A stretch of 64,000 bases of DNA, taken from the NCBI RefSeq assembly GCF_056746865.1, contig NZ_CM163382.1; one strand, 5' to 3'. Below the pieces are notes generated by a model. That model searched no databases, had not been told where the DNA came from, and was given only the letters and a program-made list of their open reading frames with translations. Position numbers and translations under genes: made by a program. This document shows positions 3,888 to 41,575 of this stretch, in pieces (position 1 is the stretch's first letter; each line of letters begins with the position of its first letter).

Positions 3888-4042
3888 TGATATGTGTAAT
3901 TGATGGTTGCTCTGGGCGAATATCGGTAAGAGGAATAACGTAATCATTAGGACGCGTTTACATAATAAACTTTCTGATAATTAATACTTATTTTCTATAC
4001 GGCCATAATATCAATTATCATTATCACCGGTAATGTGGTTAA

Positions 4043-29822: not shown

Positions 29823-30911
29823 ATGAATTCATGTGATTTTCGTGTTTTTCTGCAAGAGTTCGGTACAACGGTTCATTTGTCATTGCCTGGTAGCGTATCC
29901 GAGAAAGAACGACTGCTACTCAAGCTGCTGATGCAGGGAATGTCTGTAACAGAAATATCACAGTACAGAAATCGCAGTGCAAAGACCATTTCACATCAAA
30001 AGAAACAGCTCTTTGAGAAACTGGGGATTCAGAGCGATATTACTTTCTGGCGGGATATTTTCTTTCAGTACAATCCGGAGATCATATCCGCCACGGGTAA
30101 TAATAGTCACAAATATATTAATGATAATCACTATCACCATATCGTCACGCCTGAAGCCATCAGTCTGGCGTTGGAAAACCATGAGTTTAAACCGTGGATC
30201 CAACCGGTTTTCTGCGCGCAGACTGGGGTACTGACGGGCTGTGAGGTGCTTGTCCGCTGGGAACATCCACAAACGGGAATTATCCCACCGGATCAGTTTA
30301 TTCCTCTGGCGGAGTCATCTGGTCTTATCGTCATAATGACTCGCCAGTTGATGAAACAGACTGCGGATATTCTGATGCCGGTAAAACATTTGCTGCCGGA
30401 TAATTTCCATATTGGCATCAACGTCTCGGCGGGTTGTTTTTTGGCCGCGGGATTTGAAAAAGAATGCCTGAACCTGGTCAAGAAATTAGGAAACGATAAA
30501 ATCAAACTGGTTCTCGAGCTAACGGAACGTAACCCTATTCCGGTAACGCCAGAAGCCAGAGCGATATTTGACAGCCTTCATCAGCACAACATTACCTTTG
30601 CGCTGGATGACTTTGGTACGGGTTATGCGACCTATCGTTACTTGCAGGCGTTCCCGGTCGATTTTATTAAGATCGATAAGTCATTTGTGCAAATGGCGAG
30701 CGTGGACGAAATATCCGGTCATATTGTGGACAATATTGTCGAACTGGCGCGTAAGCCTGGTCTGAGTATCGTGGCGGAAGGGGTAGAAACCCAGGAGCAG
30801 GCGGATTTAATGATCGGCAAAGGCGTTCACTTTTTGCAGGGCTATTTGTACTCTCCGCCAGTACCGGGTAATAAATTTATCTCTGAATGGGTAATGAAAG
30901 CAGGTGGTTGA
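29823..30911 (+). CDS. pdeL: c-di-GMP phosphodiesterase with N-terminal LuxR-type HTH and C-terminal EAL domain, 362 aa
   Basis: LuxR HTH (LLKLLMQGMSVTEISQYRNRSAKTISHQKKQLFEKLG) and EAL-domain motifs (ELTE, DDFGTGYA). Confidence 0.85.
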   Translation: MNSCDFRVFLQEFGTTVHLSLPGSVSEKERLLLKLLMQGMSVTEISQYRNRSAKTISHQKKQLFEKLGIQSDITFWRDIFFQYNPEIISATGNNSHKYINDNHYHHIVTPEAISLALENHEFKPWIQPVFCAQTGVLTGCEVLVRWEHPQTGIIPPDQFIPLAESSGLIVIMTRQLMKQTADILMPVKHLLPDNFHIGINVSAGCFLAAGFEKECLNLVKKLGNDKIKLVLELTERNPIPVTPEARAIFDSLHQHNITFALDDFGTGYATYRYLQAFPVDFIKIDKSFVQMASVDEISGHIVDNIVELARKPGLSIVAEGVETQEQADLMIGKGVHFLQGYLYSPPVPGNKFISEWVMKAGG

Positions 30912-30952
30912 TGTAAACCGCTATTCACAGCGCATCGGGAGGTTGGCAGCGA

Positions 30953-31885
30953 TTAATTCTCCCGATGCAGTAAATCCTGATAGATCCCCGTTAATATGCC
31001 ATTTGGCGAAAATTGTTTTTTAATCCACTGCGTCACCTGACCGGTGGCAGAGTGCTGGGTCGCCAGTAACATGCGTGAATCCTGGCGCGGATTATGGATT
31101 TGGCGGGTAACCAGCAGGGATTGCTCCATCGCCTCGCGAACCATGTAATCCGGCAAAAAACCAATTCCTTCACCTAAAATCTGGCACTGACATTTGGTGT
31201 TGAAATCTGGCACCAGAATCGACTCCTGCCCATGCAGCAACCAGCCCACTTTTTTATTAATCGTATGCGCGGTGTCTTCCACCATGATATTGGGATAGAG
31301 ACGCAGCTGGCTTTCGGCGATGGGTTCCGGCACAAAGGCTAACGGGTGATCCGGGGCGATAGCAAAAGCCCAGCGAATCGCGCCAATCTCCGTGTAATCA
31401 ATGCCGCCACCGTCCAGCAGCGTGTCGGGTGCGCCGATAGCAATATTCGCCTGATTATTAATAATCGCATCCCAGACGCCGTTATACACTTCGGTCGTCA
31501 CGGTAATCTGGCAGGTTGGAAACTGCTTTTTCAGTACCTGTAATAAGCGTGCGGTGTGTTTGGGCGTATAAAGCAGTTGGTTAATACAAATGCGCACCCG
31601 TGCTTCTATACCCTGCGAAATAGTATCGATGCTGCGTTTGATGGCGTGAAAATCATTCAGCAGGTCGGTAGCTTTGCGGAAAAAATAACGCCCGGACTCC
31701 GTTAACTCAATGCTGCGGGTACTGCGAGTGAACAGCACCACATCCAGCCCTGTTTCCATTCGCTTGATGGTGTAGCTAATGGCGGAAGTGGTTAAACCCA
31801 ACTCTTCTGCGGCTTTACTGAAGCTGCCAAAACGCGCAGCGGTAGTAAATGCCAACAGATTCTCTTCGGTAAAAATTGAGTTCAT
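30953..31885 (-). CDS. yahB: LysR-family regulator, 310 aa
   Basis: LysR HTH (FSKAAEELGLTTSAISYTIKRMETGL); divergent from the yahC–yahJ side. Confidence 0.75.
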   Translation of the reverse strand: MNSIFTEENLLAFTTAARFGSFSKAAEELGLTTSAISYTIKRMETGLDVVLFTRSTRSIELTESGRYFFRKATDLLNDFHAIKRSIDTISQGIEARVRICINQLLYTPKHTARLLQVLKKQFPTCQITVTTEVYNGVWDAIINNQANIAIGAPDTLLDGGGIDYTEIGAIRWAFAIAPDHPLAFVPEPIAESQLRLYPNIMVEDTAHTINKKVGWLLHGQESILVPDFNTKCQCQILGEGIGFLPDYMVREAMEQSLLVTRQIHNPRQDSRMLLATQHSATGQVTQWIKKQFSPNGILTGIYQDLLHREN

Positions 31886-31976
31886 TAAACCATTCCCGCC
31901 ATTATCGAATATGAATTTCTCCAGCCATGACTGTAGAGGTATCGGTTAAAGATAGATAATCATTTTTGAATAACTT

Positions 31977-32474
31977 TTAATACCCGTCGCGTTTAGTCGT
32001 CGCTTCGCTTAATTTTTGTCCGCCATATTCTGAAATTATCCCCACGCAGTTACCCGCCAGAAAACCCAGTAATGTCACCGTCCAGTTCATCCCGCTGGCA
32101 AAAAATAGCGTCATGCCGAGAAAGCCTCCGGGAATAAAAGACAATAAACCGAAACGTCCTTGCCAGACCACCACCGCCGAGAAGGGTACAGTCATAATCA
32201 CGCTCGCCCAGAACGTGGACAATCCACTCACCGAGGCCAGCCAACCGGCAGCCAGCGCGGCGAAAAACGCCCACACCATCCCAGAATAATTAACCGCCAG
32301 GCTTCTGATAAACCCCGATTTACCGCCGCCTGCGGCATAAAAACTGCAAAAGGCGACGAAGCCAATAGTTCCTAATAATTCCCATCCCTGAGAGAGCCCG
32401 ACATGTGAAGACACTAACTGCCAAAGCCCTGCACAAATACCGACGGTGACACCCGTTGCCGTGAGTCCGTTCAT
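31977..32474 (-). CDS. yahC: small integral membrane protein, 165 aa
   Basis: Highly hydrophobic ORF with multiple predicted TM segments. Confidence 0.65.
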   Translation of the reverse strand: MNGLTATGVTVGICAGLWQLVSSHVGLSQGWELLGTIGFVAFCSFYAAGGGKSGFIRSLAVNYSGMVWAFFAALAAGWLASVSGLSTFWASVIMTVPFSAVVVWQGRFGLLSFIPGGFLGMTLFFASGMNWTVTLLGFLAGNCVGIISEYGGQKLSEATTKRDGY

Positions 32475-32731
32475 CTTGTTCCCCTCTGGTTAGACATGGA
32501 CGAAAGCTACTCTTACATGTGCAGACTATAGAGAAATAAAACCTGATTGAGTGAAAGGGTATCGGGTCAAAGAAACAAATATTGCACTACCGCACACTGC
32601 GAAAAGATTGTTGAACATCATTCAACAAAAAGGCGAAATACGGCGAATTAAATTTAAGCGGGTTCTTTTATCAGATTATCGTTGCTATTCTCAATTCATC
32701 GAAAACAGCCACAAAAACCAGGGGAATGTGA

Positions 32732-33337
32732 ATGACTATAAAAAATCTACCTGCCGACTATTTATTGGCTGCGCAACAGGGTGATATCGATAAAGTAAAA
32801 ACATGCCTTGCGCTGGGTGTCGATATTAATACTTGCGATCGTCAGGGGAAAACGGCAATTACGCTGGCAAGTTTATATCAGCAATATGCTTGCGTTCAGG
32901 CATTAATTGATGCCGGAGCGGATATTAATAAGCAAGATCAAATATGTTCAAATCCTTTTTTAATTAGCTGCCTGACCGGCGATTTAACCCTGTTACGGAT
33001 TATTTTACCGGCTAAACCTGATCTTAATTGCGTCACCCGTTTTGGCGGTGTCGGCCTGACGCCTGCCTGTGAAAAAGGCCATTTAAGTATTGTAAAAGAG
33101 CTTTTGGCGCATACGGAGATTAACGTTAACCAGACCAACCATGTTGGCTGGACGCCGCTACTGGAAGCAATTGTGCTTAATGATGGCGGGATTAAACAGC
33201 AGGCGATTGTCCAGTTATTGCTGGAACACGGTGCCAGCCCGCACATGACGGATAAATATGGCAAAACGCCGCTGGAACTGGCGCGGGAACGAGGCTTTGA
33301 AGAGATTGCGCAGTTACTGATTGCCGCAGGTGCATAA
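32732..33337 (+). CDS. yahD: ankyrin-repeat protein, 201 aa
   Basis: Repeated ankyrin-like units (GKTAITLASLYQQYACVQALIDAGADIN; GWTPLLEAIV...LLLEHGASPHMTDKYGKTPLELA). Confidence 0.75.
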   Translation: MTIKNLPADYLLAAQQGDIDKVKTCLALGVDINTCDRQGKTAITLASLYQQYACVQALIDAGADINKQDQICSNPFLISCLTGDLTLLRIILPAKPDLNCVTRFGGVGLTPACEKGHLSIVKELLAHTEINVNQTNHVGWTPLLEAIVLNDGGIKQQAIVQLLLEHGASPHMTDKYGKTPLELARERGFEEIAQLLIAAGA

Positions 33338-33376
33338 ACCGGGAGGCTTGCTATCAACACACCAGAAAGACGGTGT

Positions 33377-34240
33377 GTGTGGGCGCTAACTGCGGATGCT
33401 GATTTTCTAGCGCAGCGGGGGCAAGGACAGGTTGAACAGGTCTTTGCCAGAGCGGTAAATATCGCACTTCCGGCCCGCCAGCAGTTGCTGACGCTGCTTT
33501 GTGAAGAGTACGACAATGCGCCAAACAGTTGTCGGTTGGCACTCACTCACTTTGATGGTCTGTTCCGGCATGGTGATAAGGTTCAGTTTGACGATCAAGG
33601 CATTACGATTGGTCAACATCTTCATATAGAGATGAGTCATTGCCTGCGTTGGCTGTCCCCAACCTTGCAAATGGCCGCTGTGAATTTTCACCTTATCGCC
33701 TGGCAACAGTGGCATGACATTATTCATCAGCACCTGGGGGAAAATGAAACCCTGTTTAATTATCGCGGCGATAATCCGTTTTATCAGGCGTTAAATAAAG
33801 CACTACATATTAAACGTCGGGCAGTTATTCAGGCAGTAAACGATAAACAAAATATCGCCTCAGCAGTCGCCAGTATGATGGGCTTAGGGATTGGCCTTAC
33901 GCCATCAGCCGATGATTATTTAACAGGTCTGGCGCTTATTTTATTTATTTCCGGGCATCCGGCAGAAAAATACAAAGAGGAATTTTATCGCGGTCTGCAA
34001 CGCGGCAGAAATAATACCACGTTATTAAGTGCCATAACGCTGGAAGCCGCATTACAACAACGCTGCCGGGAAAATATTCATCGTTTTATTCATAACATTA
34101 TTTATGACATCCCTGGGAACGCAACTCAGGCAATAGAAAAAATTAAACATATTGGCTCCAGTTCCGGCTGCGACATGCTGTATGGCATGGCCGATGGTTG
34201 TGCGCTGAGCCAAACCTACGGAGGGAATTATGTCAGTTAA
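33377..34240 (+). CDS. yahE: DUF2877-family protein (YlbE-like), 287 aa
   Basis: ORF upstream of and overlapping yahF by 11 nt; family assignment from memory. Confidence 0.65.
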   Translation: MWALTADADFLAQRGQGQVEQVFARAVNIALPARQQLLTLLCEEYDNAPNSCRLALTHFDGLFRHGDKVQFDDQGITIGQHLHIEMSHCLRWLSPTLQMAAVNFHLIAWQQWHDIIHQHLGENETLFNYRGDNPFYQALNKALHIKRRAVIQAVNDKQNIASAVASMMGLGIGLTPSADDYLTGLALILFISGHPAEKYKEEFYRGLQRGRNNTTLLSAITLEAALQQRCRENIHRFIHNIIYDIPGNATQAIEKIKHIGSSSGCDMLYGMADGCALSQTYGGNYVS

Positions 34241-35777
34241 AATAGTCATTAAACCGAATACCTATTTTGATTCTGTCTCGCTGATGTCTATCTCCACGCG
34301 TGCAAATAAACTCGACGGCGTCGAGCAGGCATTTGTGGCGATGGCGACCGAAATGAACAAAGGCGTGCTGAAGAATTTAGGACTGCTGACGCCGGAGCTG
34401 GAGCAGGCGAAAAACGGCGACCTGATGATTGTCATCAATGGTAAATCGGGTGTGGACAACGAGCAGTTGCTGGCGGAGATTGAAGAACTGTTCAACACCA
34501 AAGCGCAAAGTGGCTCGCACGAGGCGCGTTACGCCACTATTGCCAGCGCCAAAAAGCATATCCCGGAAAGTAACCTGGCGGTGATTTCGGTCAACGGTCT
34601 GTTTGCCGCTCGCGAAGCGCGTCAGGCGCTGCAAAACGATCTTAACGTGATGCTGTTTTCCGATAACGTCTCAGTTGAAGATGAACTGGCGCTCAAACAG
34701 TTGGCCCACGAAAAAGGGCTGCTGATGATGGGGCCAGACTGCGGTACGGCGATTATCAACGGCGCGGCGCTCTGCTTTGGTAACGCCGTGCGTCGCGGCA
34801 ACATCGGCATTGTTGGCGCATCCGGCACCGGTAGCCAGGAACTGAGCGTCCGTATCCATGAATTTGGCGGCGGCGTTTCGCAACTGATCGGCACCGGCGG
34901 GCGCGACCTGAGCGAGAAAATCGGCGGCCTGATGATGCTCGACGCCATCGGGATGCTGGAAAACGATCCGCAAACTGAAATCATTGTGCTTATCTCCAAA
35001 CCGCCTGCGCCTGCGGTGGCCCGCAAAGTGCTGGAACGCGCGCGCGCCTGCCGCAAGCCAGTGGTGGTTTGCTTCCTCGGTCGTGGCGAAACGCCGGTGG
35101 ATGAGCAGGGGCTACAGTTTGCCCGCGGCAGTAAAGAGGCGGCGCTGAAAGCGGTAATGCTCTCCGGCGTGAAACAGGAACATCTCGACCTGCATACCCT
35201 GAACCAGCCATTGATTGCTGACGTGCGCGCTCGCCTGCAACCGCAACAGAAATACATTCGTGGCCTGTTCTGCGGCGGCACGCTGTGCGACGAAACGATG
35301 TTCGCGGTGATGGAAAAACACGGCGATGTCTACAGCAACATTCAGCCCGATCCGGAATTCCGCCTGCAAGATATCAGCCGCAGCATCAAACACACCTTCC
35401 TCGACTTTGGTGATGACGACTTCACCAACGGCAAGCCGCATCCAATGATTGACCCGACCAACCGCATCAGTCGCTTGATCGAAGAAGCGCGCGATCCAGA
35501 AGTGGCGGTGATCGTGATGGATTTTGTGCTCGGATTTGGATCGCATGAAGATCCGGTCGGCTCCACCATCGAGGCGATCAAAGAAGCGAAAGCGATCGCC
35601 GCTGCCGAAGGACGTGAGTTGATCATTCTCGCCTATGTGCTGGGTACCGATCTTGATACGCCATCATTAGAACAACAAAGCCAGATGCTGCTTGATGCCG
35701 GAGTGATTCTGGCCAGCAGTAGCACCAATACCGGATTGCTGGCGCGTGAATTTATCTGCAAAGGGGAGGAAGCCTGA
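34230..35777 (+). CDS. yahF: FdrA-like protein with CoA-binding/succinyl-CoA-synthetase-like fold, 515 aa
   Basis: Gly-rich Rossmann-like motifs (IGIVGASGTGSQE, LFCGGTLCDE); stop overlaps the yahG start (TGATG). Confidence 0.7.
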   Translation: MSVKIVIKPNTYFDSVSLMSISTRANKLDGVEQAFVAMATEMNKGVLKNLGLLTPELEQAKNGDLMIVINGKSGVDNEQLLAEIEELFNTKAQSGSHEARYATIASAKKHIPESNLAVISVNGLFAAREARQALQNDLNVMLFSDNVSVEDELALKQLAHEKGLLMMGPDCGTAIINGAALCFGNAVRRGNIGIVGASGTGSQELSVRIHEFGGGVSQLIGTGGRDLSEKIGGLMMLDAIGMLENDPQTEIIVLISKPPAPAVARKVLERARACRKPVVVCFLGRGETPVDEQGLQFARGSKEAALKAVMLSGVKQEHLDLHTLNQPLIADVRARLQPQQKYIRGLFCGGTLCDETMFAVMEKHGDVYSNIQPDPEFRLQDISRSIKHTFLDFGDDDFTNGKPHPMIDPTNRISRLIEEARDPEVAVIVMDFVLGFGSHEDPVGSTIEAIKEAKAIAAAEGRELIILAYVLGTDLDTPSLEQQSQMLLDAGVILASSSTNTGLLAREFICKGEEA

Positions 35778-37195
35778 TGAGCCAGTCACTGTTTAGCCAA
35801 CCGTTGAACGTTATTAACGTCGGTATCGCCATGTTTAGCGATGATCTGAAAAAACAGCATGTAGAAGTGACCCAACTCGACTGGACGCCGCCGGGGCAGG
35901 GCAATATGCAGGTGGTGCAGGCGCTGGATAACATTGCCGATTCGCCGCTGGCAGACAAAATCGCCGCCGCTAACCAGCAGGCGCTGGAGCGCATTATCCA
36001 GTCGCATCCGGTGCTGATTGGTTTTGATCAGGCGATTAACGTGGTGCCGGGCATGACGCCGAAAACCATTCTTCACGCCGGGCCGCCGATCACCTGGGAA
36101 AAAATGTGCGGCGCGATGAAAGGCGCGGTCACCGGGGCGCTGGTGTTCGAAGGGCTGGCGAAAGATCTCGACGAGGCGGCTGAACTGGCGGCCTCCGGGG
36201 AGATCTCCTTCTCGCCGTGCCACGAACATGACTGCGTGGGATCGATGGCGGGTGTTACCTCGGCCTCGATGTTTATGCACATCGTAAAAAACAAAACCTA
36301 CGGCAACATCGCTTACACCAATATGAGCGAGCAGATGGCGAAGATTTTGCGTATGGGCGCTAACGACCAGAGCGTGATTGACCGCCTCAACTGGATGCGC
36401 GATGTGCAGGGGCCAATGCTGCGCGACGCGATGAAAATTATCGGCGAGATCGATCTGCGCTTAATGCTGGCGCAAGCGCTGCATATGGGCGATGAATGCC
36501 ATAACCGCAATAACGCCGGGACGACGCTGCTGATTCAGGCGCTGACGCCGGGGATTATTCAGGCGGGTTATTCCGTCGAGCAACAGCGCGAAGTGTTTGA
36601 GTTTGTCGCCAGCAGCGACTACTTCTCCGGCCCGACGTGGATGGCGATGTGTAAAGCGGCGATGGATGCGGCGCACGGCATCGAATACAGCACCGTGGTG
36701 ACCACCATGGCGCGTAACGGCGTCGAGTTCGGCCTGCGGGTCAGCGGCCTGCCGGGGCAATGGTTTACCGGTCCGGCGCAGCAGGTCATCGGCCCGATGT
36801 TTGCCGGTTATAAGCCGGAAGATTCGGGGCTGGATATCGGCGACAGCGCCATCACCGAAACCTACGGCATTGGCGGATTTGCTATGGCGACCGCGCCCGC
36901 GATCGTCGCGCTGGTGGGTGGCACGGTGGAAGAGGCTATCGATTTCTCCCGTCAGATGCGTGAAATCACCCTTGGCGAAAACCCCAACGTCACCATTCCG
37001 CTGCTCGGTTTTATGGGCGTGCCATCGGCAATCGACATCACCCGCGTGGGTAGCAGTGGCATTCTGCCGGTGATCAACACCGCCATCGCTCATAAAGATG
37101 CGGGCATCGGCATGATTGGCGCGGGCATTGTGCATCCACCATTCGCCTGCTTCGAGAAAGCCATTCTTGGCTGGTGCGAACGTTACGGCGTTTGA
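35777..37195 (+). CDS. yahG: DUF1116-family protein (YlbF-like), 472 aa
   Basis: ORF translationally coupled to yahF; family assignment from memory. Confidence 0.65.
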   Translation: MSQSLFSQPLNVINVGIAMFSDDLKKQHVEVTQLDWTPPGQGNMQVVQALDNIADSPLADKIAAANQQALERIIQSHPVLIGFDQAINVVPGMTPKTILHAGPPITWEKMCGAMKGAVTGALVFEGLAKDLDEAAELAASGEISFSPCHEHDCVGSMAGVTSASMFMHIVKNKTYGNIAYTNMSEQMAKILRMGANDQSVIDRLNWMRDVQGPMLRDAMKIIGEIDLRLMLAQALHMGDECHNRNNAGTTLLIQALTPGIIQAGYSVEQQREVFEFVASSDYFSGPTWMAMCKAAMDAAHGIEYSTVVTTMARNGVEFGLRVSGLPGQWFTGPAQQVIGPMFAGYKPEDSGLDIGDSAITETYGIGGFAMATAPAIVALVGGTVEEAIDFSRQMREITLGENPNVTIPLLGFMGVPSAIDITRVGSSGILPVINTAIAHKDAGIGMIGAGIVHPPFACFEKAILGWCERYGV

Positions 37196-37290
37196 CTCTC
37201 CAACCGCACCTTACGATCCCTTCTCCCTTCAGGGGAGAGGGGCAACCTCACTCTCATAACCCCATCACCCTCTGTAGCGGACATAACAAC

Positions 37291-38241
37291 ATGAAAGAAC
37301 TTGTGGTCGTTGCCATTGGTGGCAACAGCATTATCAAAGATAACGCCAGCCAGTCGATTGAGCATCAGGCGGAGGCGGTGAAAGCCGTCGCTGATACGGT
37401 GCTGGAAATGCTGGCTTCCGATTACGACATTGTGCTGACCCACGGCAACGGGCCGCAGGTCGGGCTGGATTTACGCCGCGCGGAGATAGCCCACGAGCGC
37501 GAAGGGCTGCCCTTAACGCCGCTGGCGAACTGTGTGGCGGATACGCAAGGCGGCATTGGCTATCTGATCCAACAGGCGCTGAATAACCGACTGGCGCGTC
37601 ACGGTGAGAAAAAAGCCGTCACCGTGGTGACTCAGGTGGAAGTGGATAAAAACGATCCGGGGTTTGCCCATCCCACCAAGCCCATCGGCGCATTCTTTAG
37701 TGAAAGCCAGCGTGACGAATTACAAAAGGCAAACCCTGACTGGCGTTTTGTTGAAGATGCCGGACGGGGCTATCGCCGCGTGGTCGCCTCGCCGGAACCG
37801 AAACGTATTGTCGAAGCACCGGCCATTAAGGCGCTGATCCAACAAGGCTTTGTGGTGATTGGCGCGGGCGGCGGCGGAATCCCGGTGGTGTGCAGTGAAG
37901 CGGGGGATTACCAAAGCGTGGACGCGGTTATCGACAAAGATCTCTCTACCGCGCTATTGGCCCGTGAAATTCACGCTGACATTCTGGTGATCACCACTGG
38001 CGTCGAAAAAGTGTGTATTCACTTTGGCAAACCGCAGCAGCAGGCGCTGGATCGCGTAGATATTGCCACCATGAACCGCTATATGCAGGAAGGGCATTTT
38101 CCGCCTGGCAGCATGTTGCCAAAAATCATCGCCAGCCTGACGTTCCTGGAACAGGGCGGCAAAGAAGTGATTATCACCACGCCGGAATGCCTGCCTGCGG
38201 CGCTGCGCGGTGAAACGGGCACCCATATTATTAAAACGTAA
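37291..38241 (+). CDS. yahI: carbamate kinase-like protein, 316 aa
   Basis: Amino-acid-kinase fold motifs (VVVAIGGNSI, LTHGNGPQVG, GAGGGGIPVV); track ORF 37174..38241 trimmed to MKELVVV. Confidence 0.8.
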   Translation: MKELVVVAIGGNSIIKDNASQSIEHQAEAVKAVADTVLEMLASDYDIVLTHGNGPQVGLDLRRAEIAHEREGLPLTPLANCVADTQGGIGYLIQQALNNRLARHGEKKAVTVVTQVEVDKNDPGFAHPTKPIGAFFSESQRDELQKANPDWRFVEDAGRGYRRVVASPEPKRIVEAPAIKALIQQGFVVIGAGGGGIPVVCSEAGDYQSVDAVIDKDLSTALLAREIHADILVITTGVEKVCIHFGKPQQQALDRVDIATMNRYMQEGHFPPGSMLPKIIASLTFLEQGGKEVIITTPECLPAALRGETGTHIIKT

Positions 38242-38250
38242 GGACGTAAG

Positions 38251-39633
38251 ATGAAAGAAAACAATAGCCGCCGTGAATTTCTGAGCCAGAGCGGTAAGAT
38301 GGTCACCGCCGCCGCGCTGTTTGGTACGTCTGTGCCGCTCGCCCATGCGGCAGTCTCTGGCACAATCCATTGCGACGCGAATAACACCATGAAAATCACT
38401 GACCCGCACTACTATCTCGACAACGTGCTGCTGGAAACCGGTTTTGACTACGAAAACGGTGTGGCGGTACAGACCCGCACGGCGCACCAGACCGTAGAGA
38501 TTCAGAACGGCAAAATTGTTGCCCTGCGCGAGAACAAGCAGCATCCGGACGCCACGCTGCCGCACTATGACGCTGGCGGTAAGCTGATGCTGCCCACCAC
38601 CCGCGACATGCATATTCATCTCGACAAAACCTTTTACGGCGGGCCGTGGCGCTCGCTCAATCGCCCGGCAGGCACCACCATCCAGGACATGATCAAACTC
38701 GAGCAGAAAATGCTGCCGGAGCTGCAACCGTACACTCAGGAACGAGCGGAAAAACTGATCGATTTATTGCAGTCGAAAGGCACTACCATTGCCCGCAGCC
38801 ACTGCAATATCGAACCGGTTTCCGGCCTGAAAAATCTGCAAAATTTGCAGGCGGTGCTGGCGCGACGTCAGGCGGGCTTCGAGTGTGAAATTGTCGCCTT
38901 CCCGCAGCACGGTTTGCTGCTGTCGAAATCGGAACCCTTAATGCGTGAAGCGATGCAGGCGGGGGCGCATTACGTCGGCGGTCTGGATCCGACCAGTGTT
39001 GATGGCGCGATGGAAAAATCCCTCGATACCATGTTCCAGATTGCGCTGGACTACGACAAAGGCGTTGATATTCACCTGCACGAAACCACTCCGGCAGGCG
39101 TGGCAGCCATCAATTATATGGTTGAAACGGTGGAGAAAACGCCGCAACTGAAGGGCAAGCTGACCATCAGCCACGCCTTTGCGCTGGCAACGCTCAATGA
39201 GCAACAGGTAGATGAACTGGCGCACCGGATGGCGGCGCAGCAAATTTCTATCGCCTCGACGGTGCCGATTGGCACGCTGCATATGCCGCTCAAACAGTTG
39301 CACGACAAAGGCGTAAAAGTGATGACCGGCACCGACAGCGTTATCGACCACTGGTCGCCTTACGGCCTGGGCGACATGCTGGAAAAAGCCAATCTGTACG
39401 CGCAGCTCTATATTCGTCCTAACGAACAGAACCTCTCCCGCTCGCTGTTTTTAGCCACTGGCGATGTATTGCCGCTCAACGAAAAAGGCGAGCGCGTGTG
39501 GCCCAAAGCGCAGGATGATGCCAGCTTTGTGCTGGTGGACGCCTCCTGTTCCGCCGAGGCGGTGGCGCGTATCTCGCCGAGAACGGCGACGTTCCATAAA
39601 GGGCAACTGGTGTGGGGGAGTGTGGCAGGTTGA
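38251..39633 (+). CDS. yahJ: amidohydrolase-superfamily deaminase with Tat-type signal peptide, 460 aa
   Basis: N-terminal twin-arginine motif (SRREFLSQSGKMVTAAALFG...AHA); metal-dependent hydrolase His motifs (HIHLDKT, HLHET). Confidence 0.75.
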   Translation: MKENNSRREFLSQSGKMVTAAALFGTSVPLAHAAVSGTIHCDANNTMKITDPHYYLDNVLLETGFDYENGVAVQTRTAHQTVEIQNGKIVALRENKQHPDATLPHYDAGGKLMLPTTRDMHIHLDKTFYGGPWRSLNRPAGTTIQDMIKLEQKMLPELQPYTQERAEKLIDLLQSKGTTIARSHCNIEPVSGLKNLQNLQAVLARRQAGFECEIVAFPQHGLLLSKSEPLMREAMQAGAHYVGGLDPTSVDGAMEKSLDTMFQIALDYDKGVDIHLHETTPAGVAAINYMVETVEKTPQLKGKLTISHAFALATLNEQQVDELAHRMAAQQISIASTVPIGTLHMPLKQLHDKGVKVMTGTDSVIDHWSPYGLGDMLEKANLYAQLYIRPNEQNLSRSLFLATGDVLPLNEKGERVWPKAQDDASFVLVDASCSAEAVARISPRTATFHKGQLVWGSVAG

Positions 39634-39927
39634 TACGCATTTGAAACGCCTGCAATGGTGAATCGTAAGAGATTTAAAGCCCCAGGGAGTGGGGCGGGAA
39701 TGGTTTGTTAATGAATGATCCTGAACTTTATAATCTCCCGGCATAATTTCCAGGGGATTATTTGAGAGAAATACACAAAAGTGAGTTTTAACAATATTTA
39801 TCAAGCCATAAATGTGACCGGCTTCGGATAAAAAAGATTAAACATAGAAAAACCAATGATCCTCTTGCTGATGGTTATCAACAGTAATTAAGATGTGATT
39901 TTTTTCCGTAATCGCGAAAATATTCTC

Positions 39928-40338
39928 ATGACCATAAAAGAAAAAATCTCACAAAAATATCCCCATGCTTCCTTTTGTACTTTTGGCGATTCAGCAGCGT
40001 TGGCCGATCACCTCGCAACGTTGATTGCGACAGGTGTTAAAACAGCTTCCTGTGGTTCGCTGGCGGGATGTATTGAAGACAACGCATTTCCGATGATTGG
40101 TGAGTATAAGATTGTAGAAAATAGCCGTGGTGAGCCTGTCTGTGTTATCAGAGTGATTGGCCTGCATTTACTGCGCTTTTCTGATGTCACCGCGGAGCTT
40201 GCCCGTAAGGAAGGTGAAGGTGACCTCAGTCTTGAATATTGGCGTAATGAACACCGTCGTTTTTTCCAGGCAGAAGGATGCTATTCACCCGAAATGGACG
40301 TTATCTTTGAAGAATATGCCCTTATTGACGTTGTGTAG
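39928..40338 (+). CDS. ASCH-domain protein (about 136 aa; start uncertain, track ORF begins at 39895)
   Basis: ASCH-like GxKT motif (LIATGVKTASCG) and C-terminal ELARKEGEG...EYWRNEHRRFF segment; lies in an AT-rich stretch. Confidence 0.5.
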   Translation: MTIKEKISQKYPHASFCTFGDSAALADHLATLIATGVKTASCGSLAGCIEDNAFPMIGEYKIVENSRGEPVCVIRVIGLHLLRFSDVTAELARKEGEGDLSLEYWRNEHRRFFQAEGCYSPEMDVIFEEYALIDVV

Positions 40339-40588
40339 ATAACTATTTTTCTACGCGAAATAAGCTCACAAACATAAAATATCGCTAATTTTGTTTATTT
40401 TGCTATTTTTTACGTGATGAATGTCACACTTATTATTGCTGCCCGTTTTGTCCATATTTATAACCAAATTTTTAATAGCTGCCTGAAATAGGGCTGTTTA
40501 TTCTGCATAAAAATATTCGAAAATTCTTATTCTCTCCAGCGCGCTAATTTGGGCGAACACTTCCTGACTACCCTGCAATGAGGCTGAA

Positions 40589-41575
40589 ATGATGAATAAA
40601 CGTTTTGTTATCAATATGGTGTCTTCGCTGTTATTAGGCGCTGCGCTAATTTCTGCGCCGCTCCAGGCAGCGGAAAAAGTCGTGGTGAATATCTCTAAAG
40701 TCGATGGTATGCCGTGGTTTAATCGCATGGGCGAAGGTGTGGTCGAGGCGGGTAAAGCCTTTGGTGTTAATGCGTCACAGGTGGGGCCTTCAAGTACTGA
40801 TGCTCCGCAACAGGTTAAAATCATTGAGGATTTAATCGCCCGTAAGGTTAATGCAATTACAATTGTGCCAAACGATGCCAACGTGCTGGAACCGGTATTC
40901 AAAAAAGCGCGAGATGCCGGAATTGTGGTTCTGACCAACGAATCCCCCGGTCAGCCAAGTGCTAACTGGGATATCGAAATCATTGATAACGAAAAATTTG
41001 CCGCTGAATATGTTGAACATATGGCGAAACGCATGGGTGGCAAGGGCGGCTATGTGATTTACGTGGGTAGTTTGACCGTGCCGCAGCATAACTTATGGGC
41101 TGACTTGCTGGTGAAATACCAGAAAGAGCATTACCCGGATATGCATGAAGTTACCCGCCGCATGCCGGTTGCCGAGAGTGTGGATGACTCACGTCGTACC
41201 ACACTGGACCTGATGAAAACCTATCCTGACTTGAAAGCGGTTGTCTCCTTTGGTTCAAACGGTCCGATTGGCGCGGGACGTGCAGTGAAAGAGAAACGGG
41301 CGAAAAATAAAGTCGCAGTCTATGGCATGATGATCCCTTCACAGGCGGCATCACTGATTAAAAGTGGTGATATCACCGAAGGGATTACTTACGATCCGGC
41401 CTCTGCAGGTTACGCACTCGCGGCCGTCGCCAGCACGTTGCTGAAGGGTGAAGAGATCAAACCTGGATTAGAAATGCAGAATCTGGGGAAGGCCGACGTA
41501 GATATAGATAAGCGAATTATCCGTTTCCATAAGGTACTGCTGGTCAACAAAGACAATATCGACTCACTTTATTAA
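40589..41575 (+). CDS. periplasmic substrate-binding protein of a ribose/AI-2-type (CUT2) ABC importer, LsrB/RbsB-like, 328 aa
   Basis: Signal peptide (LLLGAALISAPLQAAEK) and type-I periplasmic binding fold; C-terminal ...NKDNID... resembles LsrB as I recall it. Confidence 0.7.
   Translation: MMNKRFVINMVSSLLLGAALISAPLQAAEKVVVNISKVDGMPWFNRMGEGVVEAGKAFGVNASQVGPSSTDAPQQVKIIEDLIARKVNAITIVPNDANVLEPVFKKARDAGIVVLTNESPGQPSANWDIEIIDNEKFAAEYVEHMAKRMGGKGGYVIYVGSLTVPQHNLWADLLVKYQKEHYPDMHEVTRRMPVAESVDDSRRTTLDLMKTYPDLKAVVSFGSNGPIGAGRAVKEKRAKNKVAVYGMMIPSQAASLIKSGDITEGITYDPASAGYALAAVASTLLKGEEIKPGLEMQNLGKADVDIDKRIIRFHKVLLVNKDNIDSLY

Follow-up and report, generated by a model that had tools for sequence, protein, structure and literature searches.

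A candidate substrate-specific version of the AllFGH/AllK carbamoyl-transfer module encoded by the yahB–yahJ cluster of Escherichia coli

Results

Yah proteins are paralogous to the allantoin-cluster carbamoyltransferase, kinase and regulator

We analyzed the yahB–yahJ cluster of Escherichia coli, which occupies positions 30953–39633 of a 64,000-nucleotide stretch of DNA (contig NZ_CM163382.1 of assembly GCF_056746865.1; the whole stretch is referred to here as the window). The cluster is 100% identical to that of strain 118UI and is found at a coverage of at least 80% in 4980 of 5426 complete E. coli genomes. Judging from the relatives of its proteins and by analogy with allantoin catabolism, we propose, with a probability of roughly 55%, that yahB–yahJ encodes a substrate-specific version of the energy-conserving AllFGH/AllK decarbamoylation module, in which deamination of a substrate would be followed by uptake, phosphorolysis and recovery of ATP.

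An earlier inspection of the letters of the window (the sequence-only reading) had likened the yahE–yahF–yahG trio and the carbamate-kinase-like gene yahI to fdrA–ylbE–ylbF–ybcF next to the allantoin genes. When the Yah proteins were compared by BLASTP with the all-cluster proteins of the same genome, five paralogue pairs were obtained: YahF with AllF (FdrA; 38% identity over 513 amino acids, E = 2e-99), YahG with AllG (YlbE; 45% over 415 amino acids, E = 5e-118), YahE with AllH (YlbF; 25% over 265 amino acids, E = 4e-10), YahI with AllK (YbcF; 39%, E = 4e-58) and, as a pair absent from the earlier reading, YahB with AllS (39% over 290 amino acids, E = 2e-73). The complete lack of detectable homology between yahE/F/G and the fdrA/ylbE/ylbF families, which the earlier reading had named as what would speak against it, was therefore not what we found. 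The likeness holds for the protein families but not for the gene order, which is H-F-G in yah and F-G-H in all.

The role of fdrA–ylbE–ylbF as an oxamate carbamoyltransferase, which the earlier reading had offered and which can be traced to the 2012 CanOE study, is now experimental. Purified AllF-AllG-AllH (Kim & Kim 2024) is oxamic transcarbamylase (OXTCase), which catalyzes the reaction oxalurate + Pi ↔ carbamoyl phosphate + oxamate (PMC11326118); AllK serves as the carbamate kinase of the catabolic route (PMC9843812), and the activator of the allF operon, in the oxamate branch, is AllS (PMC11326118, PMC9843812, PMC12535856). Together with the five paralogue pairs, this activity of AllFGH supports the analogy by which YahEFG would be a carbamoyltransferase. 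The two systems share the three subunit families, an adjacent carbamate kinase, a related LysR activator and the adjacency of F and G, at 25–45% identity. They differ in that the place of the allantoin enzymes is taken in Yah by a deaminase, a permease of the nucleobase type and an ankyrin gene that is obligatory, and in that Yah forms a separate and far more conserved clade and does not cross-complement under allantoin conditions. Indeed, an allFGH deletion mutant made no oxamate from allantoin with chromosomal yah present, and supplying this mutant with allGH alone gave 16%, and with allFG alone 7%, of wild-type oxamate (PMC11326118, Table 3). YahF or YahE may have stood in partially for the missing subunit and so account for this residual oxamate, a reading that does not appear in PMC11326118. 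Our literature search found no functional assignment for the yah genes; the yah paralogues go unmentioned in the AllFGH papers (PMC11326118, PMC9843812, PMC12535856), and the 2024 re-survey of the y-ome counts yahC, E, G, H, I and J as a closely packed group of uncharacterised genes (PMC11551758).

Gene map of the cluster

The features of the cluster are listed below; the open reading frame (ORF) map, the RefSeq annotation and our own translations were concordant in their coordinates.

30953–31885, minus strand: yahB, LysR-type regulator, AllS paralogue
31977–32474, minus strand: yahC, small polytopic membrane protein, DUF1097 (RefSeq annotation, hydrophobic segments)
32608–32628, no strand: candidate YahB operator dyad, 124 nt upstream of yahD
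32732–33337, plus strand: yahD, ankyrin-repeat protein, conserved accessory partner of the cassette
33377–34240, plus strand: yahE, AllH/DUF2877-family subunit
34230–35777, plus strand: yahF, AllF/FdrA-family subunit, succinyl-CoA-synthetase-alpha-like, without the phosphohistidine loop
35777–37195, plus strand: yahG, AllG/DUF1116-family subunit, strongest constraint in the cluster
37196–37290, plus strand: yahG–yahI spacer, slot of a 517-amino-acid permease-like gene in most other genera
37291–38241, plus strand: yahI, carbamate-kinase-family protein
38251–39633, plus strand: yahJ, amidohydrolase with a predicted twin-arginine translocation (Tat) signal, AtzC/CodA deaminase branch

The overlaps claimed in the sequence-only reading, 11 nt between yahE and yahF (34230–34240) and 1 nt between yahF and yahG (TGATG, at 35777), are both real, and its family calls for YahB, YahC, YahD, YahE, YahF, YahG, YahI and YahJ agree with Pfam and NCBIfam models, annotation and hydrophobicity. 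One start was corrected: yahI begins at the annotated ATG at 37291 and not with the longer GTG ORF at 37174. The intergenic gaps measure 39 nt (yahD–yahE), 95 nt (yahG–yahI) and 9 nt (yahI–yahJ), and these short distances, with no predicted terminator, are consistent with co-transcription.

The putative transferase subunits YahF, YahG and YahE

YahF scored 491 bits against the FdrA model NF004760 (cut-off 433) and contains the Pfam domains CoA_binding and Ligase_CoA, with HMA_AllF_N recorded on its orthologues; the motifs GASGTG, GTGGRD and GKPHPMIDP are invariant among 86 YahF-family sequences. It resembles the NDP-forming acyl-CoA synthetase/succinyl-CoA synthetase (SCS) superfamily in aligning to the CoA-binding and the following domain of SCS-alpha, and has a further Ligase_CoA domain. 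It differs from that superfamily in that the MGHAGA phosphohistidine loop of SCS-alpha is deleted in its alignment to 2yv2 (in FdrA likewise, no equivalent histidine is evident in alignments to 2yv2 and 3dmy) and in that no ATP-grasp partner is found among the cluster genes; the leaving group would presumably be an amide and not CoA. The missing loop in both YahF and FdrA fits a reaction that would end at a free acyl (carbamoyl) phosphate, to be used by a separate kinase.

YahG belongs to PF06545 (DUF1116/AllG). It is 88% identical to its counterpart in Aeromonas, 79% in Janthinobacterium and 76–77% in Brevibacillus, Paenibacillus, Psychrobacillus and Sporosarcina, compared with 45% to AllG of the same cell. 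Clustering of a library at 50% identity left one representative for the entire Yah clade, with the next relatives at 49% or less. The Yah type is a distinct and tightly conserved clade beside AllG. A search for fold relatives of YahG returned none beyond its own orthologue 3clq, and the fold thus gave no clue to mechanism; the folds of the G and H subunits are both without a characterised structural relative.

YahF and YahG are almost certainly one enzyme, because many relatives are single-chain F::G fusions of about 800–1000 amino acids (for example, at 3924–6953 of L091 and 1–2388 of L090, where L numbers are our handles for the matching stretches; also representatives P0132–P0146), and because a segment lies on different subunits in the two systems: residues 12–53 of YahG match the C-terminal tail of AllF, so that the F/G boundary is shifted by about 45 residues between the paralogous systems, this segment being N-terminal in YahG and C-terminal in AllF.

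YahE matched the Pfam family AllH/DUF2877 (PF11392; E = 1.6e-28) and is the least conserved member of the cluster (26–64% identity). We considered an AtzD/barbiturase identity for YahE (Toblerone fold, PF09663) and rejected it, as YahE does not qualify for that family. The clusters of Enterobacter, Leclercia, Lelliottia, Silvania, Huaxiibacter and A. cavernicola are otherwise intact but have no yahE and no space in which such an ORF could lie, yahD being directly followed by yahF (L052, L050, L057 and L080). The absence of YahE from these clusters fits the 7% of wild-type oxamate still made by allFG without allH (PMC11326118).

YahI and the predicted Tat-exported amidohydrolase YahJ

YahI matched the carbamate kinase subfamily NF009007 over its full length (645.7 bits, cut-off 266) and, with 347 bits, fell just under the cut-off of 358.25 of the arcC equivalog TIGR00746. 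Nearly all related loci long enough to show it pair a carbamate kinase gene with the F/G cassette; the Sporosarcina cluster is without one.

YahJ is an Amidohydro_1/3 protein with an NCBIfam subfamily of its own (PRK06846, 716 bits). The Tat signal proposed in the sequence-only reading is confirmed as a prediction: the N terminus (MKENNSRREFLSQSGKMVTAAALFGTSVPLAHA followed by AV) carries SRREFL at residues 6–11 and an AxA-type site, AHA-AV, at residues 31–35, and at least 62 of 75 YahJ orthologues share the twin-arginine motif. The solved structures nearest to YahJ are AtzC, the N-isopropylammelide isopropylaminohydrolase (6nbo, 4e-44; 2qt3, 3e-30), followed by cytosine deaminases (1e-20 to 1e-14), and YahJ shares with AtzC and CodA the HxH, Q, H..E, H and D motifs. 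Among 76 YahJ sequences, H121-x-H123, Q219, H275, E278 and H308 are invariant and D362 is conserved at 0.99; these presumably correspond to the metal-binding and catalytic residues of CodA. YahJ differs from AtzC and CodA in its predicted Tat signal and periplasmic location, its low identity to them and its separate subfamily. Of the two activities suggested for YahJ earlier, deamination or ring opening, the former is favoured by this placement in the deaminase branch (AtzC closer than CodA); YahJ does not group with ring-opening amidohydrolases. YahJ is among the predicted Tat substrates of the extraintestinal pathogenic E. coli PCN033, and its deletion mutant had a competitive index of 0.70 in mice (PMC7549933). 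In Xenorhabdus, yahJ occurs alone (L093, 10001–11389), and Erwinia rhapontici has only yahB beside yahD-yahJ, the latter two overlapping by 8 nt (L092, 8279–11389).

Two cluster architectures and a permease slot between yahG and yahI

A collection of one genome per species yielded 491 matching stretches, of which the best 80 loci, all from Enterobacterales or Aeromonas, were mapped by tblastn. Two architectures were seen. In type A, yahB on the minus strand is followed by yahD-E-F-G, a gene for a 517-amino-acid protein, and then yahI-J (Citrobacter, Enterobacter, Serratia, Buttiauxella, Providencia, Proteus, Trabulsiella, Yokenella and others); in type B, yahB and yahC on the minus strand are followed by yahD-E-F-G-I-J (Escherichia, Kluyvera, Raoultella, Pseudocitrobacter, C. 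amalonaticus and K. spallanzanii). Among the 80 loci, yahC is present in 17 and the 517-amino-acid permease gene between yahG and yahI in about 59, and none has both. YahC is strongly hydrophobic, and its gene occurs exactly where the permease is gone.

The 517-amino-acid protein has at least 11 hydrophobic segments and gave no match in Pfam, NCBIfam or the PDB, nor to E. coli AllW (NCS1) or YbbY (NCS2). Several sources label its relatives as xanthine, AzgA or adenine/guanine/hypoxanthine permeases, with one PF00860 label; we take these as labels only. The family is 72–78% identical in Brevibacillus and Janthinobacterium. As a separate observation, polytopic proteins of 500–517 amino acids are repeatedly linked to differing AllF/G-type cassettes (L006, 11540–13093; L005, 11656–13209; L094, 12167–13717; L097, 1711–3216 and 3876–5399). 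In Escherichia species the yahG–yahI spacer is 95, 234 or 318 nt long, and in K-12 the spot is the phantom gene “yahH”, which is filled with repetitive extragenic palindromic (REP) elements (PMC11551758). Because type A loci carry the 517-amino-acid gene at the yahG–yahI junction and Escherichia does not, we conclude that E. coli lost the permease of the cassette at this point.

The ankyrin protein YahD and clusters beyond Enterobacterales

The sequence-only reading had remarked that an ankyrin protein is unusual in a bacterial metabolic operon. It is unusual indeed, and yahD proves to be the most faithfully co-inherited accessory gene of the cassette. Model and domain searches gave ankyrin matches for YahD. 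All type A and type B loci long enough to include its position have it; in Enterobacterales, Aeromonas, Janthinobacterium and Brevibacillus an orthologue (53–71% identity) is the first protein encoded in the cluster, and the Sporosarcina cluster has an Ank-TPR protein instead. PDB entry 3hra is an ankyrin family protein similar to YahD and presumably the product of the Enterococcus faecalis gene ef_0377. The latter ankyrin gene is co-transcribed with ef_0378, of the amidohydrolase family, and is induced in insect and mouse infection (PMC2912369). Given its presence throughout the cassette and the pairings in Erwinia and E. faecalis, YahD tracks the transferase and the exported amidohydrolase alike, and from this pattern a scaffold or chaperone role for YahD seems plausible. 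We also note that the ankyrin–amidohydrolase pairing may be a unit in itself, as in Erwinia and E. faecalis.

Outside the Gammaproteobacteria, Janthinobacterium has the order Ank-E-F-G-permease-carbamate kinase-LysR, and Brevibacillus has a PucR gene beside Ank-E-F-G-NCS1 permease-carbamate kinase-small deaminase, of which the Paenibacillus and Sporosarcina clusters are variants. The core Ank-E-F-G-permease-carbamate kinase thus recurs in Gammaproteobacteria, Betaproteobacteria and Bacillales. The NCS1 protein of Bacillales scored 435 bits against the allantoin permease model and is 35% identical to E. coli AllW, and the small deaminase has the cytidine-deaminase fold, with B. subtilis guanine deaminase as its nearest solved relative (1.5e-31). 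A deaminase is thus the usual companion of the cassette. Because the cassette has recruited deaminases of two unrelated folds and nucleobase-type permeases of two unrelated families, the input of the pathway would seem to be an amino-substituted, nucleobase-like heterocycle.

Mobile copies and related cassettes

A type A copy without yahJ, flanked by IS1 and IS100, is present on about 70 large conjugative IncF plasmids of E. coli and Klebsiella. In pHS13-1-IncF (NZ_CP026494.1; L094, 6273–14706) a LysR gene lies beside Ank-E-F-G-permease-carbamate kinase, and its G and F proteins are 91% and 83% identical, respectively, to the chromosomal proteins. Because these plasmid copies add to the chromosomal one, some strains own two yah-type cassettes.

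The tkt1 island of avian pathogenic E. coli (APEC) O1 (NC_008563.1; L095, 7797–15993) contains a third module of this kind in the E. coli pan-genome, DUF2877-FdrA-DUF1116-carbamate kinase, with an AllS/YahB-like LysR regulator and an NCS1, cytosine-permease-like protein. Its G protein is 46% identical to YahG and 48% to AllG. Unlike Yah, it has neither the ankyrin protein nor YahJ; its feeders are a BiuH-like cysteine hydrolase (280 bits against the biuret amidohydrolase model) and a 129-amino-acid protein matching the C-domain of allophanate hydrolase, which suggests a substrate of the biuret/allophanate type. In nitrifiers, an allFGHK-like cassette adjoins biuH and trtA (PMC12625717). On one metagenome contig (L089, 7614–11428), a bona fide gene of the AtzD/TrzD (cyanuric acid hydrolase/barbiturase) family lies directly 5′ of AllF-like and AllG-like genes, in the place of AllH; no carbamate kinase gene was seen on that stretch. 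Other cassettes have as neighbours an isochorismatase gene, two genes of the 517-amino-acid permease family and a uracil phosphoribosyltransferase gene in one case, and molybdenum-hydroxylase maturation genes in another. Because enzymes of the AtzC, AtzD and BiuH types make or process acyl-ureas, these associations support the view that the module performs acyl-urea phosphorolysis with recovery of ATP.

YahB and a candidate operator

The best NCBIfam models for YahB were AllS (269 bits, under the cut-off of 372) and PunR. YahB was accordingly rejected as AllS itself, for which it falls short of the equivalog cut-off, and is described here as an AllS/PunR-like LysR regulator. Of those among the 80 related loci that are long enough to include its gene, nearly all have it divergent from the yahD operon. 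At 32608–32628, 124 nt upstream of yahD, lies a perfect dyad, TTGTTGAA-N5-TTCAACAA, which occurs once in the window compared with 0.01 occurrences expected by chance. Of 81 orthologous upstream regions, 75 have it with three or fewer mismatches in the 16 arm positions, compared with 1 of 81 shuffled regions; the arms are conserved, the spacer is free, and the dyad has the T-N11-A form of LysR sites. By these features it is the obvious candidate for the YahB operator. An AllS-type site resembling the dyad was not found in the allD–allF intergenic region. An Rfam scan of 30000–41000 returned no riboswitch or other RNA element, and in the region no consensus promoter or terminator rose above chance, with no terminator between yahG and yahI. 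The yahG–yahI spacer contains a hairpin with an 11-bp stem, CCCTTCTCCC..GGGGAGAGGG, at about 37218–37242, the folding of which is not significant (z = −1.1).

A proposed pathway and the points that weigh against it

In the pathway that we propose, YahJ would be folded with its metal, exported by the Tat system and, in the periplasm, strip an exocyclic amino or alkylamino group from an amino-oxo N-heterocycle resembling cytosine, ammelide or guanine. On chemical grounds, this deamination would turn an amidine-urea motif into the acyl-urea motif -CO-NH-CO-N-, which is the motif that OXTCase cleaves in oxalurate. The product would be taken up by the 517-amino-acid AzgA-like permease in most genera, possibly replaced by YahC in E. 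coli. YahF and YahG, helped by YahE and the ankyrin protein YahD, would then act in the cytoplasm, splitting the carbamoyl-N bond of the acyl-urea with phosphate to give carbamoyl phosphate and an amide, and YahI would pass the phosphate to ADP, yielding ATP, NH3 and CO2. YahB would control the yahD operon through the dyad at 32608–32628. We infer all of the Yah reaction, its substrate, the roles of YahC, YahD and YahE and the order of the steps.

Several observations weigh against this pathway. First, the deaminase is missing from the clusters of Janthinobacterium and A. allosaccharophila and from the IncF plasmid copies, and YahJ can work without E, F, G and I, because it stands alone in Xenorhabdus and only with YahB and YahD in Erwinia. 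Second, clusters without YahE exist, and allH is required for full OXTCase activity (PMC11326118). Third, E. coli itself has no permease. Fourth, no ring-opening hydrolase is conserved in any Yah-type cluster, so that a product with a stable ring would leave one step missing. Fifth, the order of steps is not fixed, because YahJ is predicted to be periplasmic and the deaminase of Bacillales has no signal peptide. Lastly, the dN/dS values by which we judge constraint are approximate, since dS is saturated: against five other genera they are below 0.27 for all eight yah genes, including yahC, yahD and yahE (yahB, 0.015–0.05; yahC, 0.06–0.10; yahD, 0.08–0.13; yahG, 0.02–0.07). On these values, all eight genes are under purifying selection, which counts in favour of the pathway.

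Alternative readings of the cluster

One alternative, which we consider unlikely, is that YahEFG and YahI are a second, isofunctional pair of OXTCase and carbamate kinase that acts on oxalurate from a precursor other than allantoin, for example, urate or guanine oxidation products of the parabanate or imino-parabanate type, which would open spontaneously to oxalurate after deamination by YahJ. Such a route would need no ring-opening enzyme; it agrees with the 38–45% identity to AllF and AllG and with the AllS-like regulator, and the 16% of oxamate made with allGH could reflect help from YahF (our reading of PMC11326118). However, the Yah clade of YahG is set sharply apart, being one cluster at 50% identity, with 76–79% identity across phyla and 45% to AllG of the same cell. 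Further, the failure of the allFGH mutant to make any oxamate from allantoin indicates that chromosomal yah is no substitute under those conditions (PMC11326118), and the permease and deaminase partners differ.

The missing hydrolase is taken at face value in a second alternative, in which the Yah complex would attack a cyclic acyl-urea, the deaminated heterocycle, with phosphate, giving an N-substituted carbamoyl phosphate and, through YahI, ATP, so that the ring would be cleaved without a hydrolase. Nucleobase-type permeases and deaminases are conserved, and in no Yah-type cluster is a ring-opening hydrolase conserved; YahI, just under the arcC equivalog cut-off, is of a subfamily distinct from that of AllK; and the Yah-specific ankyrin protein, like the extreme degree to which YahG is conserved, suggests that the reaction is demanding and specialised. 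Against this, there is no precedent for such a reaction, which is thermodynamically doubtful for a resonance-stabilised ring imide, the sole characterised relative uses a linear acyl-urea (PMC11326118), and in related cassettes hydrolases of the AtzD family or BiuH-like type supply linear substrates. We therefore hold ring phosphorolysis to be improbable. The same low odds apply to its fullest form, a hydrolase-free machine for cleaving a cyanurate-, barbiturate-, uracil- or xanthine-type ring, with the ankyrin protein as an indispensable structural subunit or as a chaperone shared with the Tat-exported deaminase.

It is similarly doubtful that the Escherichia cluster is an evolutionary remnant, in which deletion of the permease has left a pathway that is no longer supported. 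The permease is gone exactly at the yahG–yahI junction, a stretch of varying length that in K-12 is filled with REP elements, the genes are still in the uncharacterised y-ome (PMC11551758), and evolution in M9 produced a nonsense mutation in a DUF1116 gene (PMC6306219) that is probably yahG, as judged only by a near-identical protein accession. Yet purifying selection on all genes, yahC included, is seen in a permease-less lineage of several genera, the cluster is kept in 4980 of 5426 genomes, deletion of yahJ causes a small fitness defect in vivo (PMC7549933), and yahC turns up exactly where the permease is gone.

We think it very unlikely that the cluster runs in the synthetic direction, with YahI making carbamoyl phosphate and YahEFG carbamoylating an amide or heterocycle so as to modify or detoxify an imported compound. 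The OXTCase reaction is reversible, and its kinetics were taken in the carbamoylating direction (PMC11326118), but the context of uptake permeases, deaminases and LysR or PucR regulators is catabolic, AllK is catabolic (PMC9843812), and there are no downstream biosynthetic genes. Finally, that YahF is an acyl-CoA synthetase, in a cluster that would serve to activate an organic acid, as its RefSeq name (“acyl-CoA synthetase FdrA”) and its CoA_binding and Ligase_CoA domains would have it, is scarcely credible, given the deleted phosphohistidine loop, the lack of an ATP-grasp partner in the cluster and the function of its namesake FdrA as a subunit of OXTCase (PMC11326118).

Place of the Yah cassette among carbamate kinase pathways

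E. coli has three carbamate kinase paralogues, two of which belong to defined pathways, AllFGH-AllK for allantoin/oxalurate and YgeW-YqeA for anaerobic purine breakdown; yah is the last orphan and sits in one of the densest y-ome blocks of E. coli. The proposed Yah pathway resembles that of ygeW-yqeA, in which phosphorolytic decarbamoylation is followed by formation of ATP through a carbamate kinase paralogue in anaerobic purine breakdown (PMC12623156), and differs from it in the transferase, which in YgeW-YqeA is of the ATCase/OTCase fold and bears no relation to F, G and H. Yah is a very strongly conserved and horizontally mobile cassette, found on chromosomes across phyla and on IncF plasmids, and F/G(/H) with the kinase appears as a plug-in module with feeders of the AtzC, AtzD or BiuH type. 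This suggests that acyl-urea nitrogen is used by a general, energy-conserving route in bacteria of the gut, the urinary tract and soil. With the permease lost in E. coli, a phenotype may have to be sought in an organism other than K-12. Newly described here are the separateness of the Yah clade, the co-inheritance of the ankyrin gene, the clusters without YahE, the slot of the 517-amino-acid permease, the accompanying deaminase, the dyad and the absence of the loop in YahF.

Neighbouring genes

Immediately upstream of yahB, on the opposite strand, lies pdeL (29823–30911), which encodes a cyclic di-GMP phosphodiesterase and transcriptional regulator. It is probably unrelated to the cluster, because the adjacency of pdeL and yahB is kept only in Escherichia loci. 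On the 3′ side of yahJ, this strain has a gene for an ASCH-domain protein (39928–40338), then genes for an ATP-binding cassette transporter annotated as of the autoinducer-2/sugar type, and then yahK, in a span that runs to about 45000. The ASCH gene is beside yahJ in none of the other 80 loci; in K-12, yahK follows yahJ directly.

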